Below are positions 52,395-62,091 of a DNA stretch of 64,000 nucleotides, piece after piece. Numbering within the stretch: position 1 is the first letter of the stretch; each line of letters opens with the position of its first letter. The position numbers and the translations under genes were made by a program. Under the pieces are notes generated by a model. The model saw only the letters and a program-made list of their open reading frames with translations, searched no databases and was not told where the DNA came from. Origin of the DNA: an uncultured Acidimicrobiia bacterium (lineage in GTDB: Bacteria; Actinomycetota; Acidimicrobiia; Spongiisociales; UBA5794); assembly GCA_963753185.1 (NCBI GenBank), contig CAVWBO010000007.1, positions 1,537,140 through 1,601,139 on the forward strand, in the 5' to 3' direction.

Positions 52395-53258
52395 TCACTG
52401 AGCGGAAACGGGACCCCTGGATCCGACGGCTTCAGCCACCTGCTGGGCGGCACCCTGGATGAGATCCTTCAGCGGGGGGCGAGGCGAGCCGCTCGCGAGG
52501 CCGCAGAGGCCCGCGGCGTGCTTCGTGCCAGGCACACCGTACCCCTCGACGACTGCGGTGAGAGCGTCGAGGCGTGCCTGGGCGTCTCCGTCCCCTGTCA
52601 CGGCAGCGGCGACATCCGCCAAGGCATAGTTCGCGCTGGCTGTGATCGCGCCGTGGACGCCGGCTCGATGGCTCTCGAGGATGGCACGAGACGCACCAAC
52701 GTAGGTGATGAACCCGCCTGCGATCGTGCCGGCGAGGGCCGTGATGCGCGTCGGGTCGCCCCCGGAGTCCTTCATGCCGATGATCGAAGGATGGTGTGCG
52801 AGCGTGGCGACCGACTCCGTCGGCAATTCCCATCCCGTGACCCTGGGAACGGAGTACAAGAGGATCGGCAGGGGCGATGCGTCGGCGAGATCCTCGTAAT
52901 ACGCCTCGACGGATGCTGCCACCCCTCGTACGAGGGTCGTTGGTGTGACGACCAACACACCGTCTGCCCCTGCGTCCGCCGCTTCCCCGATCTGTCGTAC
53001 TGCCTGGCGCACCGACTCCGCGAACACCCCGCAGAGCAGCACGAGACCGGGTGCGACCTGTGCTGCGTGCTTCAGGAGCACTGCCCGTTCCCCAGGGTCG
53101 AGGTACGGTCCCTCGCCCGTCGATCCTGCGATGAGTACCGCTTCCGCGCCCTGCTCGGCCATCGTCGCGATGTTGTGTGCGTGACCGTCGACGTCGAGTG
53201 ATCCATCGGGTGTGAACGGGGTGATGAGCGCAGGCATCGTCCGTGGCCAGGCCGTCAT
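52395..53258 (-). CDS. DapA-family (4-hydroxy-tetrahydrodipicolinate synthase / DHDPS-like) aldolase
   Basis: It is a TIM-barrel Schiff-base lyase with GSTGEG and a Lys in IIGMKDSGGD. Confidence 0.75.
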   Translation of the reverse strand: MTAWPRTMPALITPFTPDGSLDVDGHAHNIATMAEQGAEAVLIAGSTGEGPYLDPGERAVLLKHAAQVAPGLVLLCGVFAESVRQAVRQIGEAADAGADGVLVVTPTTLVRGVAASVEAYYEDLADASPLPILLYSVPRVTGWELPTESVATLAHHPSIIGMKDSGGDPTRITALAGTIAGGFITYVGASRAILESHRAGVHGAITASANYALADVAAAVTGDGDAQARLDALTAVVEGYGVPGTKHAAGLCGLASGSPRPPLKDLIQGAAQQVAEAVGSRGPVSAQ

Positions 53259-54753: not shown

Positions 54754-55818
54754 TCAGCCGAGGTGGCTGATCACAGCCGCTGTCATGGTCTCCGTGTCGA
54801 CGGTCGGCCCACCGAACGCGATGTCGGGCGTTCGGAAACCGTCGTCGAGTGCACGCGAGACAGCCAGCTCCACCGAATCGGCCTCCTTCGGCAGTCCCAG
54901 GGAGTGTCGGAGGGCCATCGCCGCCGACAGGATCATCGCGAGCGGATTGGCCGTACCGCTGCCAGCGATGTCCGGAGCCGATCCGTGGATGGGCTCATAG
55001 AGTCCTGGCCCGTCGGATCCGACCGATGCGCTCGGAAGGAGACCGATCGACCCAGGGATCATCGAGGCCTCATCCGACAAGATGTCACCGAACAGATTGC
55101 CTGTCACGATCACGTCGAAGTCCCGTGGCCTCGAGATGAGGTGCATCGCCATTGCGTCGACCAGCTGATTCTCGAACTCGACGTCCGGGAACTCGTCGGC
55201 CATGATCCGGTCGGCCGTGCGGCGCCACAACCTCGACACCGCAAGCACGTTCGCCTTGTCGACGGAGGTCACCTTGCCGCGCCTCACCCGTGCCGCCTCG
55301 GCCGCCAGCCGAACGATCCGCTCGATCTCGGTGACGGAGTACCGCATGTGGTCTGCGACCTCCGTACCGTCGTCGGAGGTCGTCGAACCACCGAAGTAGA
55401 TGCCTCCTGTCAATTCCCTGTAGATCACGATGTCGACACCTTCGACGAGGTCGCGGCGGAGCGGGGAGGCGTCGAGGAGCTGTGGGTGGGCGACGATCGG
55501 ACGCACGTTCGCGAACAGTCCGAGTTCGCTGCGAATCGCGAGGAGGCCCTGCTCGGGTCTCGTCGACGCGTGGGGGTCACTCCATCGCGGCCCCCCGACG
55601 GCACCGAGGAGGATCGCGTCCGCACCCCGTGCGGCCTCGAGCGTCGCCGCGGGAAGCGGTTCACCGGTCGCGTCGATCGCGCAACCGCCGATGAGGTGTT
55701 CCACGGTGACGATGCGATGGCCGTGGAGGGTGCCCACACGTTCGAGTACCTCCGTGGCGGCTCGGACGACTTCGGGACCGATCCCGTCCCCGGGGAGGAG
55801 GACGACCTGGGCCTTCAC
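54754..55818 (-). CDS. leuB: 3-isopropylmalate dehydrogenase
   Basis: It contains LLPGDGIGPEV and NLFGDILSDEAS. Confidence 0.9.
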   Translation of the reverse strand: MKAQVVLLPGDGIGPEVVRAATEVLERVGTLHGHRIVTVEHLIGGCAIDATGEPLPAATLEAARGADAILLGAVGGPRWSDPHASTRPEQGLLAIRSELGLFANVRPIVAHPQLLDASPLRRDLVEGVDIVIYRELTGGIYFGGSTTSDDGTEVADHMRYSVTEIERIVRLAAEAARVRRGKVTSVDKANVLAVSRLWRRTADRIMADEFPDVEFENQLVDAMAMHLISRPRDFDVIVTGNLFGDILSDEASMIPGSIGLLPSASVGSDGPGLYEPIHGSAPDIAGSGTANPLAMILSAAMALRHSLGLPKEADSVELAVSRALDDGFRTPDIAFGGPTVDTETMTAAVISHLG

Positions 55819-58475: not shown

Positions 58476-58964
58476 TTACCTGCGTGCGCCGGCCTTCGCG
58501 TCCTTCGCCAGGGCGATTCGACCCGATTTGACCAGCGAAATGATCCCGTAGGTGCGCATGATCTCGAGGAAGTCGGCGAGCCGACTCGGTTCGCCGACGA
58601 CCTCGAATGTGATGGTCGTGGCTCCCACATCGACGGCCTTCGCCTCGAAGATGTTCGCTGCCTCGAGGATCTCGCTTCGGCGCGCCGTGTCGGCGTTGAC
58701 CCGCACGAGCATGATCTCGCGCTCGATCGCCTCGCCGGGTAGGTGCTCGGTCACCTTGATCGTGTGCACGAGCTTGTAGAGCTGCTTGACGATCTGCTCG
58801 ACCTCGGGGGCGTCGACCACCATGGTGATGCGTGACCGTGTCGGGTCCTCCGTCGGTCCGACAGCGAGGGAGTGGATGTTGAAGTCCCTCCTCGCGAACA
58901 TCGATGAGATGCGGGCGAGTACCCCGGGCTTGTTCTCGACCGTCACCGACAGCACATGGCTCAT
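58476..58964 (-). CDS. ilvN: Acetolactate synthase small (regulatory) subunit
   Basis: It has an ACT domain ([26 protein letters not shown]). Confidence 0.9.
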
Positions 58965-60676
58965 GTGAAGTCCTCGAGACGGAGGATGATCTCGTCGTTC
59001 GAGCCACCGGCGACGACCATCGGGAAGACGAGGGCGTCGGGATCGCAGACGAACTCCATCACGACCGGGCGGTCGTCGACTGCGAGGCCCTTCTCGATGG
59101 TGGGAATCACGTCAGACGGGTGCTCCGCACGGAACCCCGCGCACCCCATCGCCTCCGCGAGCATCACGATGTTGGGGTTGTCGAATGACAGGACCGACCC
59201 GCTGTAGCGCTCGTCGTAGAACAGTCGCTGCCACTGGCGCACCATGCCGAGGTTCGCGTTGTTCATGACGGCGATCTTCACGGGCACGCCCTCGAGCGCG
59301 GCCGTGATGAGCTCCTGGAAGGTCATCTGGAAGCATCCGTCGCCATCGATGGCGATGACCGTCGACGACGGCATGCCGATTTGGGCACCGACGGCCGCGG
59401 GCACGGCGAAGCCCATCGTCCCGAGCCCACCCGAGTTGATCCATGTGTTCGGGCGCTCGAACGGCCAGAACTGGGAAGCCCACATCTGGTGCTGGCCGAC
59501 ACCGGCCACCACGGTGGCGTGCGGTGCATGCCGGGCGAGCTGGTCGATCACGTACTGCTGCTGGATCGGCCCGTCGGGATCCTGTTCGTAGGTCAGGGGG
59601 TGGTCGTGCTGCCACTGGGCGATGGTGGCGAACCACTCGGCACGATCCGGTGCGTCGTCGTTGGCCAGCGCCCGTGCTCCCCGGTCGATCAGCTGGTCGA
59701 GGACCGCCGATGCGTCGCCGACGATCGGCACGTCGGGAACCCGGATCTTGCCGATCTCGGCCGGATCGACATCGACGTGGATCACCTTGGCGCCAGGTGC
59801 GAAGAACTCCGGGTTCCCCGTGACCCTGTCATCGAATCGGGCTCCGATCGCGATGAGCAGATCCGCCTTCTGGATGGCCGTCGTCGCCGTGTACGAGCCG
59901 TGCATGCCCGACATGCCGAGGGTGAGGGGATGGGAATCGGGGATGGCGCCGCGCGCCATCAGCGTCGTGACCACCGGCAGGTTCTGCTGCTCGGCGAACG
60001 CCCTCAGGGCGTTGCTCGCACCGGCACGGATGATGCCGCCACCTGCGTAGAGGACAGGGCGCTCCGAGGCGATGATGAGGTCGATGGCGGCGGCAACCTG
60101 CCTTGGATGTCCCTGGACGGAAGGCTTGTACCCGGGGAGGTCCACATGTCCCTGTCCCTTCCATGGTGCCTCGCCCCCGAGCGCGTCCTTCGTGATGTCG
60201 ACGAGGACCGGCCCCGGTCGACCGGATGCGGCGATGTGGAACGCCTCACGGACGGCATCTGCGATCTCCTCGGTCCTCGTCACGAGGTGGTTGTGCTTCG
60301 TGACCGGCATGGAGATGCCCCATGTGTGCGCCTCCTGGAACGCATCGAGACCGATCGACGTCGACGGTACCTGGGCGGTGATGGCCACCACGGGGATCGA
60401 GTCCATGTAGGCGTCGGCGAGGGGAGTGATCAGGTTCGTCGCACCCGGTCCCGACGTCGCGAACGTCACCCCGATGCGTCCCGTCGCATGTGCGTACCCC
60501 GACGCCATGTGCCCGGCGCCCTGCTCATGGCGCGCGAGGATGTGTCGTATACCGCTGTCGAACAAGGTGTCGTACGCCTTGAGGATCGCTCCTCCCGGCA
60601 CACCGAAGATGACCTCGACGCCTTCGGCCTCGAGCGACCGTATGAGGATCTCCGAACCAGTGAGGATGTTTGTCAT
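58961..60676 (-). CDS. ilvB: Acetolactate synthase large subunit
   Basis: It has TPP, FAD and Mg-binding motifs (GDGCFQM, ...NNANLGMV). It has an ATGA overlap with ilvN. Confidence 0.9.
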
Positions 60677-60685
60677 GTCGTGCTC

Positions 60686-60779
60686 CAGATAAACGAAACC
60701 CTCCGGGGCACGGAGGGTTGGGCGCATCGGTTGTGTGATGCGCCTACCTGAGGAGGATTACTACGAGGTGTCTTTTCAT
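60686..60779 (-). promoter_or_regulatory. ilvB leader-peptide transcription attenuator
   Basis: An 11-codon leader ORF (60779..60744, minus strand) encodes [11 protein letters not shown], with six Leu/Val/Ile codons in a row. Hairpin GGCGCAUC..GAUGCGCC follows at 60721-60744. The terminator hairpin CCCUCCG-UGCCC-CGGAGGG follows at 60698-60716, then UUUCGUUUAUC. The ilvB RBS and ATG come 10 nt later. Confidence 0.6.
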
Positions 60780-62091
60780 GTCCCTATCGCCGACGTATGC
60801 GGCAGGTGTGGGAGTATGGCACCGTGGCGAAGAAGGTCAAATCGAGAGGGTGGACGTGGTGTCGGACGGGCCCGTGACCCTGGGTCGAGATGCCAGGCGC
60901 CTTCTCCGATCAGTCATTGCCGCGTCTCGGGAGGAGCTCGCTGATCGGGACTCCGATGAGGTGCCGGCGCGCCTTCGCAAGGTGGCTGCGAGCTCGGCTC
61001 GTTCGCTTCCACCCCCCCTCGAGAAGGCCCTGGTCGATGTACTCATCGCCGATGAAGCGTTCCGCACCGCCGTTGCTGGGCGGTGGAGCGCCGCTGGTCA
61101 CGGCGATGCAGCCTCGGAACTGTTCCTCGAGGATCCCGAACGGGCAGCCCCCATCCTCGAGGCGATGGCTGCGGGTGGCCTCCTCGATTCGGAACGCGCT
61201 CGGGTCGGTGTCCTCACGGATCGCGTCCAGGACCTCGAGCGCAAGCTAGCGGAGGCCAAGGCGAGGACCAGTGCAGCTCGCGACAAGGCACGCGCGGACA
61301 TTGCCGCCCTCAAGGAGGCCAATCGCCTCGCACGTTCGAGCACCGCCGAGACTGCGGCCGCCTCACGCCGGATCGCGGAGGCCGCAGCGACCGAGCACCG
61401 GAACACCGAAGCCGAGAGGGTTCGCCTCGTCGCCGAGGTCAGCGAACTCCGACGCACGGTGGACCGACTCACGGAGAAGGCGCGCCGAAGGACCGAGGAC
61501 GGCCGAGCCCCTGCCGACAGGTCGAGGGATGGCACCCTCCCAGGTCCCGGCACGGACCCCTCGGCAATCGCGAGGAATCTCGACGCCTTCGAGCGTGCCG
61601 TGCGCCCGTACCGACCCGCCGTTGATGTCACCATGGCCCCCGACCTCGAGGGAGCATTCACCCTTCCCGGCGGGATCGCCCCTGACACCGCGGAGGCGGT
61701 CGCTGCGGTCCTCGCCGGGCGGGTCGATGTGATCGTCCTCGACGGGTACAACCTCGCGGGGGTGCTCGGCGTCGAGCAGTTCGCGACATCCGAAGGCCGT
61801 GCCATCGTCGGAACCATCGCGACGGGCCTCGCTCGGTCGTCGACGGCCAGGGTCATGGTGATCTTCGACGCGGTCGGCGTGGTCGGAAGGCAAGCCGTTC
61901 GAAGCGACCTCGGTGTCGAGGTCATCTTCGCCCAGGATCGGTCAGCGGACGAGGAGATCGTCGATCTCGTCGCCAACGCTCGGGGACGATGGGTCGTCGT
62001 CACCAACGATCGTGAGCTGAGGGATCGGTGCGCGTCCCACGGAGCGGTGGTCCTGTGGTCCGACGCCGTTGCCTCCTGGTGGCACCGCTGA
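60778..62091 (+). CDS. NYN/YacP-like (PIN-fold) domain protein with an N-terminal coiled-coil region
   Basis: The C-terminus (VIVLDGYNLAG ... VVVTNDRELRDRCASHGAVVLWS) fits a NYN nuclease domain. The annotated ATG overlaps the ilvB leader peptide start. The true start is probably a downstream in-frame GTG at 60850-60861. Confidence 0.55.
   Translation: MSLSPTYAAGVGVWHRGEEGQIERVDVVSDGPVTLGRDARRLLRSVIAASREELADRDSDEVPARLRKVAASSARSLPPPLEKALVDVLIADEAFRTAVAGRWSAAGHGDAASELFLEDPERAAPILEAMAAGGLLDSERARVGVLTDRVQDLERKLAEAKARTSAARDKARADIAALKEANRLARSSTAETAAASRRIAEAAATEHRNTEAERVRLVAEVSELRRTVDRLTEKARRRTEDGRAPADRSRDGTLPGPGTDPSAIARNLDAFERAVRPYRPAVDVTMAPDLEGAFTLPGGIAPDTAEAVAAVLAGRVDVIVLDGYNLAGVLGVEQFATSEGRAIVGTIATGLARSSTARVMVIFDAVGVVGRQAVRSDLGVEVIFAQDRSADEEIVDLVANARGRWVVVTNDRELRDRCASHGAVVLWSDAVASWWHR

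Follow-up and report, generated by a model that had tools for sequence, protein, structure and literature searches.

A probable branched-chain amino acid-sensing leader-peptide attenuator upstream of ilvBNC-leuAB in uncultured Acidimicrobiia

Results

Organization of the ilvB leader

The DNA studied here is a 64-kb window of contig CAVWBO010000007.1 (assembly GCA_963753185.1) from an uncultured Acidimicrobiia bacterium (UBA5794). On the minus strand it carries the genes ilvB-ilvN-ilvC-leuA-leuB in that order, down to position 54754, and all five proteins matched an NCBIfam equivalog. The names given by these models indicate that the sequence ahead of ilvB is the leader of an operon whose genes serve all three branched-chain amino acids (BCAAs). 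This leader is a candidate transcription attenuator and is the subject of the present analysis. It contains a short open reading frame (ORF), two adjacent hairpins and a U-rich tract, and faces a divergent gene that encodes a NYN (YacP-like) protein (Table 1).

Table 1. Features of the ilvB leader and its surroundings (SD, Shine-Dalgarno)
Feature	Position	Strand	Evidence
-35 hexamer TTGACC of leader/ilvB promoter	60835..60840	-	promoter scan, 1 site vs 0.1 expected; TTGAC invariant
Extended -10 TGcCATACT	60813..60821	-	promoter scan; TGC.ATA invariant
SD-like AGGGA before leader ATG, very short spacing	60781..60785	-	sequence
Leader ORF, including UAG stop (60746-60744)	60744..60779	-	sequence; conservation in relatives
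Regulatory run CUC GUA GUA AUC CUC CUC (L V V I L L)	60750..60767	-	sequence
Hairpin H1, 8 bp, loop ACACAACC, opening with G of stop codon	60721..60744	-	folding; compensatory changes in 77 leaders
Intrinsic terminator stem-loop, 1 nt past H1	60697..60719	-	folding; terminator scan; covariation
U-rich tract UUUCGUUUAUC	60688..60698	-	sequence; terminator scan
ilvB SD GGAG, 6 nt ahead of ATG	60683..60686	-	sequence
ilvB (acetolactate synthase large subunit)	58961..60676	-	NCBIfam equivalog; homologues align from residue 1
Divergent NYN (YacP-like) gene, revised start GTG 60856 or GTG 60874	60856..62091	+	homologue alignment; GC3

The leader ATG (60779-60777) is followed by the codons AAA AGA CAC CUC GUA GUA AUC CUC CUC AGG and by UAG, so that the ORF has 11 codons before its stop. 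An initial annotation, made from the letters of the window, had proposed a minus-strand mini-ORF with six consecutive branched-chain codons ahead of ilvB, and direct reading of 60767-60750 bears this out. Two copies of the rare Val codon GUA lie within the run. Over the whole 64 kb, both strands included, this is the sole mini-ORF with at least five Leu/Ile/Val (L/I/V) codons adjoining its stop. A GGA upstream of the leader ATG is kept in an alignment of the closest relatives. The leader ATG also overlaps, as CATG, the plus-strand ATG at 60778 from which the NYN gene is annotated, just as had been described.

The arms of the first hairpin, H1, are GGCGCAUC (60744-60737) and GAUGCGCC (60728-60721). 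The G of UAG is the first base of H1; the stop codon is thus embedded in the hairpin, in agreement with the initial annotation. The terminator is a GC-rich stem of 9 bp in which AACCCUCCG (60719-60711) pairs with CGGAGGGUU (60705-60697) across the loop UGCCC, followed by UUUCGUUUAUC. The sequence and a terminator scan, which found one site against 0.1 expected, confirm the second hairpin and U-rich run reported after H1. Only the distance to ilvB had been misjudged. The U-rich run was placed 10 nt before the ribosome-binding site; it ends 1 nt before GGAG and 11 nt before the ilvB ATG (60676). The 127-nt leader folds with a z-score of -3.55, and none of 200 shuffles was equally stable. One further ATG (60727-60725, minus strand) lies inside the 3' arm of H1 and in the ilvB frame, where it opens a 588-residue ORF (58961-60727). 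Its use as the ilvB start was rejected, since the alignment with homologues begins at 60676 and the closest relative (L001) has its corresponding AUG out of frame; the in-frame position looks incidental.

Conservation in relatives

Relatives were collected by a scan with the IlvB protein, keeping one genome per species. The resulting 80 loci (58-80% identity) come almost entirely from Acidimicrobiia metagenome-assembled genomes. The 250 nt upstream of each ilvB were searched for mini-ORFs of 5-25 codons with at least four consecutive L/I/V codons ending no more than two codons from the stop. Such a mini-ORF was present in the sense direction at 55 of 78 loci and in the antisense direction at none of the 78; dinucleotide shuffles produced one in 7 of 1560 cases (0.45%). 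Most loci that failed this test have the element further upstream, with an LVLI-type ORF. The initial annotation had made its reading depend on a Val/Ile/Leu-rich mini-ORF being conserved in related species, and the run is conserved. The leader peptides are alike in the L/I/V run alone, as illustrated by MTTNVVILLA, MNTPLNVVLILI, MTSSILVLP, MSRARAVLVLRT and MHAYRLLVILT. Within one clade (L025, L027, L028, L029 and L039), the leader ORFs have a common MSRxRA-type N-terminus, whose codons (UCGCGCGCACGCGCC) resemble the 5' arm of H1; this may reflect an RNA-level constraint or shared ancestry.

A covariance model was built from 54 leaders. Its sole significant match in the window is the leader itself (60689-60770, 50.3 bits, E = 1e-9). 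The model found the element exactly once in 77 of 81 sources, in each case upstream of ilvB and on the same strand, and no match was found away from ilvB leaders (556 kb, E <= 0.01). A weaker hit at 52884-52946 on the plus strand (11.7 bits, E = 0.58), containing AUCCUCGUAAUA and a small hairpin, falls inside a long coding region and was judged to be due to chance.

When the 77 leaders were aligned to the model, 96.2% of cells were in standard pairs, and 12 of the 13 pairs changed on both sides (138 cells). None of 500 column shuffles matched this result, and sliding the partners by 1-3 columns left 39-62% pairing. This alignment is fitted to the covariance model itself. An independent MAFFT/RNAalifold analysis recovered the same two helices, again with 12 of 13 pairs covarying. 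The terminator helix (helix 3) is 99.6% paired and has double changes in five of its six pairs. Its arms are nearly always CCUCC(C)/(G)GGAGG in the 77 leaders, that is, an anti-SD-like sequence and a perfect SD-like sequence. Four loci (L011, L019, L021 and L024) lack any other SD from the terminator down to the ilvB AUG, which is 17-20 nt downstream.

In some bacteria ilvB is controlled by a riboswitch (PMC10272879), which brings up the possibility that the RNA binds a ligand or tRNA directly, as a ppGpp riboswitch or T-box would, and that the mini-ORF is incidental. A scan of 60300-61300 against Rfam at E <= 10 retrieved only two unrelated families at chance level, DGCR5 and ar45; neither ppGpp (ykkC-type), T-box nor ilvB-OMG matched. 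The element consists of two simple hairpins with variable loops and lacks a conserved unpaired core, and the ORF signal is strong and frame-specific. We regard direct binding of this kind as extremely improbable. Comparison with known leader models, recommended in the initial annotation, was equally negative: the Rfam families for Leu, Thr, His and Trp leaders gave no match (E <= 10).

Codon and stop-codon usage

The codons of the leaders are strongly biased. GUA makes up 63% of leader Val codons, whereas its share in ilvB of the same genomes is 2.5%. The corresponding values are 21% and 4% for CUU among Leu codons, and 25% and 9% for AUU among Ile codons. UAG ends 50 of 57 leaders (88%) and 25% of the long ORFs of the same DNA. 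The associated probability (p = 3e-23) is, we stress, nominal, as the sequences are related by descent. The A and G of UAG usually lie within the H1 stem, and the next base is C or G. UAG may be preferred because of the need to pair, or because a slow, RF1-dependent stop is selected for.

The same codons have been singled out in better-studied organisms. GUA and CUU are the named conserved control codons of the C. glutamicum leader (PMC11857589). In M. tuberculosis ilvB1, a GUA within 'LVVI' is a regulatory site, replacement of LVVI by AAAA abolishes induction, and the terminated transcript is ~120 nt long (PMC13236596). This codon use ties the Acidimicrobiia element to experimentally studied relatives within the same phylum.

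Geometry of the run, the stop codon and the hairpins

Distances were measured in 45 leaders, in nucleotides from the first base of the stop codon. The L/I/V run occupies -18 to -6 (medians; -21 to -6 in the window), and nearly all leaders have exactly one non-BCAA codon, at -3. GUA occurs at -9, -12 or -15. The start of H1 falls at +1 (range -3 to +3), and the hairpin has a median free energy of -19 kcal/mol. From H1 to the terminator the median distance is 1 nt (range 0-5), even though H1 loops vary widely. By established ribosome dimensions, mRNA is unwound ~11-13 nt beyond the first base of the codon in the P site. On this scale, a ribosome stalled with a codon of the run in its A site would keep H1 intact, and one with UAG in its A site would have opened 7-9 nt of the H1 5' arm. 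The geometry suggests that H1 is placed to report whether the ribosome is stalled in the run or has reached the stop.

Proposed mechanism

Taken with its conservation, codon usage and geometry, the element is very likely a BCAA-sensing leader-peptide transcription attenuator that controls ilvB-ilvN-ilvC-leuA-leuB. Transcription would begin from a promoter at 60840-60813, and a ribosome would translate the 11-codon leader. With plentiful charged Leu, Val and Ile tRNAs, the ribosome would run to UAG, the base of H1, and in so doing unwind the hairpin. The terminator, which follows after 1 nt, would then halt most transcripts ahead of ilvB. If one of these tRNAs runs short, the ribosome would stall within L-V-V-I-L-L, with the rare GUA codons as the most probable sites. 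It would then stand with its leading edge just short of H1, which could fold. Folded H1, set against the base of the terminator, would lower termination and allow RNA polymerase to read into the operon. Termination by the element and its relief by ribosome stalling are both predictions from sequence. The role of H1 as the relieving element is suggested by analogy with the ilvB leaders of M. tuberculosis and C. glutamicum. Folded H1 could lower termination through steric hindrance or stacking in the exit channel, by marginally invading the terminator base, or by affecting pausing.

Points against the attenuator and alternative readings

Several points weigh against attenuation by the leader peptide. 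The regulatory function of the leader is deduced from its sequence. The SD-like AGGGA of the window is poorly spaced, at just 1-2 nt from the leader ATG. In S. coelicolor, as cited in PMC1262725, changes in the candidate regulatory codons of the ilvB leader had no effect. Finally, H1 and the terminator have no nucleotides in common, which leaves unexplained how H1 would antagonize termination, and folding analyses failed to supply the missing link. A search for duplexes between the upstream RNA and each terminator arm (45 leaders, 100 shuffles each) found no enrichment and no conserved position. When a ribosome footprint was placed at every codon and the remainder was folded at equilibrium, the terminator always formed (P ~0.95). 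Real attenuators act as kinetic traps, and for this reason we judged ribosome-masked equilibrium folding to be too insensitive. In RNA cut before the 3' arm of the terminator, the 5' arm was paired at 0.38-0.43 in all ribosome states.

Two helix extensions were also considered. H1 can extend by 2-3 bp into the terminator base at some loci (GGU:ACC in the window); this needs an exposed -3 codon and is not general. Extension of the terminator into the 3' arm of H1 was rejected as mechanistically irrelevant because it pairs that arm with the U-tract, a segment that the polymerase still encloses when the decision is made. Alternative antiterminator pairing, for which the initial annotation had suggested a search, was thus sought in four ways and not found. 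These failures indicate that the element is not an attenuator of the enterobacterial 1:2/2:3/3:4 type. The initial comparison to the ilv attenuators of Corynebacterium and enterics therefore stands in part: leader peptide and terminator are present and the codons match those of Corynebacterium, but the enterobacterial pairing scheme is absent.

An antiterminator could in principle have been missed, with H1 acting as a 1:2 pause or protector hairpin and a 2:3 helix excluding the terminator, as in classical enterobacterial attenuation. The leader peptide, upstream hairpin and terminator do occur in the right order, and some relatives have C-rich H1 loops or CCUC-rich codons able to pair with the GGAGG 3' arm (-12 to -18 kcal/mol). 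However, these pairings are no better than those of dinucleotide shuffles and fall at different places in different species. The H1 3' arm and the terminator 5' arm are non-complementary and only 0-5 nt apart, neither equilibrium nor truncated-RNA folding showed a ribosome-dependent switch, and no Rfam leader family matched. A classical attenuator is therefore unlikely.

The lack of an antiterminator, together with the S. coelicolor codon mutants that had no phenotype (PMC1262725), could also be taken to mean that the mini-ORF does not sense amino acids. The terminator would then be a constitutive partial attenuator or an RNA-stability element, and any regulation would take another route, such as ilvB translation or an H1-binding protein; the H1 stem is indeed fairly conserved (GCGCACGC/GCGUGCGC) in many clades. 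Such a reading leaves unexplained why the L/I/V run alone is conserved, why the rare GUA codon is enriched 25-fold, and why the run-stop and stop-H1 distances are fixed. Moreover, H1 shows compensatory changes instead of strict sequence conservation, and the terminator does not sequester the ilvB SD in the window. We consider this reading very improbable.

If the leader is an attenuator that works without an antiterminator helix, H1 could be gated by the ribosome itself. Melted only at the slow UAG in its base, H1 would otherwise block the abutting terminator, either by steric hindrance or stacking in the RNA polymerase exit channel or by acting on the polymerase, and not by base-pair competition. 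We put this forward as a tentative and rather doubtful proposal.

Relation to known ilv leaders

The M. tuberculosis ilvB1 leader (Nat Microbiol 2026, PMC13236596) is close in several respects. Its short translated upstream ORF (uORF) has 'LVVI' codons that include GUA, where the window has L-V-V-I-L-L with two GUA. It also has a Rho-independent terminator and a hairpin whose formation requires the ribosome to stall ahead of the stop. Compared by description, the two differ in that the M. tuberculosis anti-terminator and terminator are mutually exclusive, whereas H1 and the terminator co-exist in every prediction made here.

Corynebacterium ilvB-II and the C. glutamicum ilvBNC attenuator (Morbach 2000; Narunsky 2023, PMC10272879; three-hairpin model, PMC11857589) likewise combine a BCAA-rich uORF, with control codons CUU and GUA, and two stem-loops of which the second is the terminator. 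In the C. glutamicum model the antiterminator and terminator abut and have a boundary trinucleotide alone in common (PMC11857589). The C. glutamicum uORF is leaderless or nearly so, as is predicted for most Acidimicrobiia relatives but not for the window's own clade. The Corynebacterium uORF is longer, at 15-17 codons, and continues ~6 codons past the BCAA run into P1, whereas here a single codon separates the run from the stop, which forms the base of H1. For Corynebacterium, a hairpin over the uORF has been proposed as an anti-antiterminator; none was seen in our folds. The leader sequences cannot be aligned by eye. Judged against the published alignment, the leader of the window departs from the ilvB-II P1/P2 consensus: there the uORF spans P1, and here it goes no further than the base of H1.

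Seliverstov et al. (2005; PMC1262725) described actinobacterial ilvB leaders as a 'leader peptide with terminator'. They share with the present element a short ORF with an Ile/Val/Leu run, a poly-U terminator and the lack of an obvious antiterminator, and their mode of regulation was called unclear. That survey covered Corynebacterium, Mycobacterium and Streptomyces, not Acidimicrobiia, and its ORF overlaps the terminator hairpin, whereas here the ORF overlaps a separate upstream hairpin. The leaders of enterobacterial ilvGMEDA (ilvL) and ilvBN (ivbL) also place a multivalent Leu/Val/Ile peptide and an intrinsic terminator before ilv genes. They differ in having ~32 codons and defined 1:2, 2:3 and 3:4 pairings, compared to 11 codons and no 2:3 pairing here. 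An ORF with an L/I/V run before ilvB, conservation of that run, an intrinsic terminator between uORF and ilvB, and GUA/CUU use were all found. The element belongs with the actinobacterial ilvB uORF attenuators, as a form specific to the Acidimicrobiia lineage.

Promoter and divergent NYN gene

The promoter scan gave a -35/-10 spacer of 16 nt. In an alignment of the window (WIN) with L001-L003, L007 and L010, TTGAC and TGC.ATA are the sole invariant blocks upstream of the leader, and their flanks diverge. The ilvB promoter had been expected to lie inside the annotated 5' region of the NYN gene, and the conserved TTGAC/TGcCATAcT pair at 60840-60813 places it there. From the usual spacing, transcription is predicted to start near 60806, which would give a 5' untranslated region (UTR) of ~26 nt. 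A near-repeat of the -10 region lies within this UTR, GCCATAC of the -10 being followed 13 nt on by GCATACG (60793-60821, minus strand). CATACG at 60799-60794 was considered as a second, leaderless-promoter candidate and rejected; it lacks the final T of the hexamer and a -35.

The arrangement varies among clades. In the window's own clade (WIN, L001-L004, L007 and L010), the 5' UTR is ~25-35 nt long and has the SD-like GGA. In most other Acidimicrobiia clades (L005-L080; e.g., L025, L027, L029, L038 and L041), a -10-like CATACT, CACACT or CAGACT lies close upstream, its end 7-10 nt from the uORF ATG, and TTGcc or TTGAC stands ~17 nt above it. The position of the -10-like hexamer predicts that the uORF of these clades is leaderless or almost so, like that of C. 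glutamicum.

The gene has homologues placed divergently to ilvB in at least 10 related Acidimicrobiia loci (tblastn), so that the pairing is conserved. Its protein (60874-62091; also L001-L010 and L013) has a long N-terminal region rich in Ala, Arg and Glu and a C-terminal NYN domain. Pfam NYN_YacP matches residues 319-428 of the ORF annotated from ATG 60778, and no NCBIfam model matched the protein. Homologues align only from residue ~31-41 onward. In L001 an in-frame stop rules out every start but a GTG that lies 198 nt from the ilvB start; this GTG corresponds to GTG 60874 of the window, and L002 and L003 have the same start position. The GC content at third codon positions (GC3) is 0.54 in 60778-60849 and 0.77 for the NYN gene. 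The alignments and GC3 indicate that the annotated start at 60778 is an over-extension and that the true start lies ~25-32 codons later. GTG 60856 has the best SD (GAGAGGG, 5-8 nt upstream), and GTG 60874 is the best positional match to the homologues. A downstream GTG had been anticipated in the initial annotation, within 60850-60861; that range includes the first of these candidates and excludes the second. Either GTG places the leader promoter outside the NYN coding sequence. The promoter of the NYN gene itself must overlap the ilvB leader promoter region.

Discussion

Amino acid sensing by a leader peptide is a textbook idea. For this locus, the analysis adds an 11-codon leader ORF, a predicted promoter and a probable attenuator to the annotation ahead of ilvBNC-leuAB, and it moves the predicted start of the NYN gene downstream. 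More broadly, it adds the largely uncultured Acidimicrobiia to the lineages with an actinobacterial ilvB uORF attenuator; in this class the element is near-universal (found in all but four of the sources). As no Rfam family matched, the covariance model would improve the annotation of many metagenome-assembled genomes. The geometry of the family is unusually clean: the run, the spacer codon, the UAG in the hairpin base and the short gap to the terminator are all fixed, with no detectable antiterminator. This combination bears on a question raised by other Actinobacteria, namely how ilvB leaders relieve termination.

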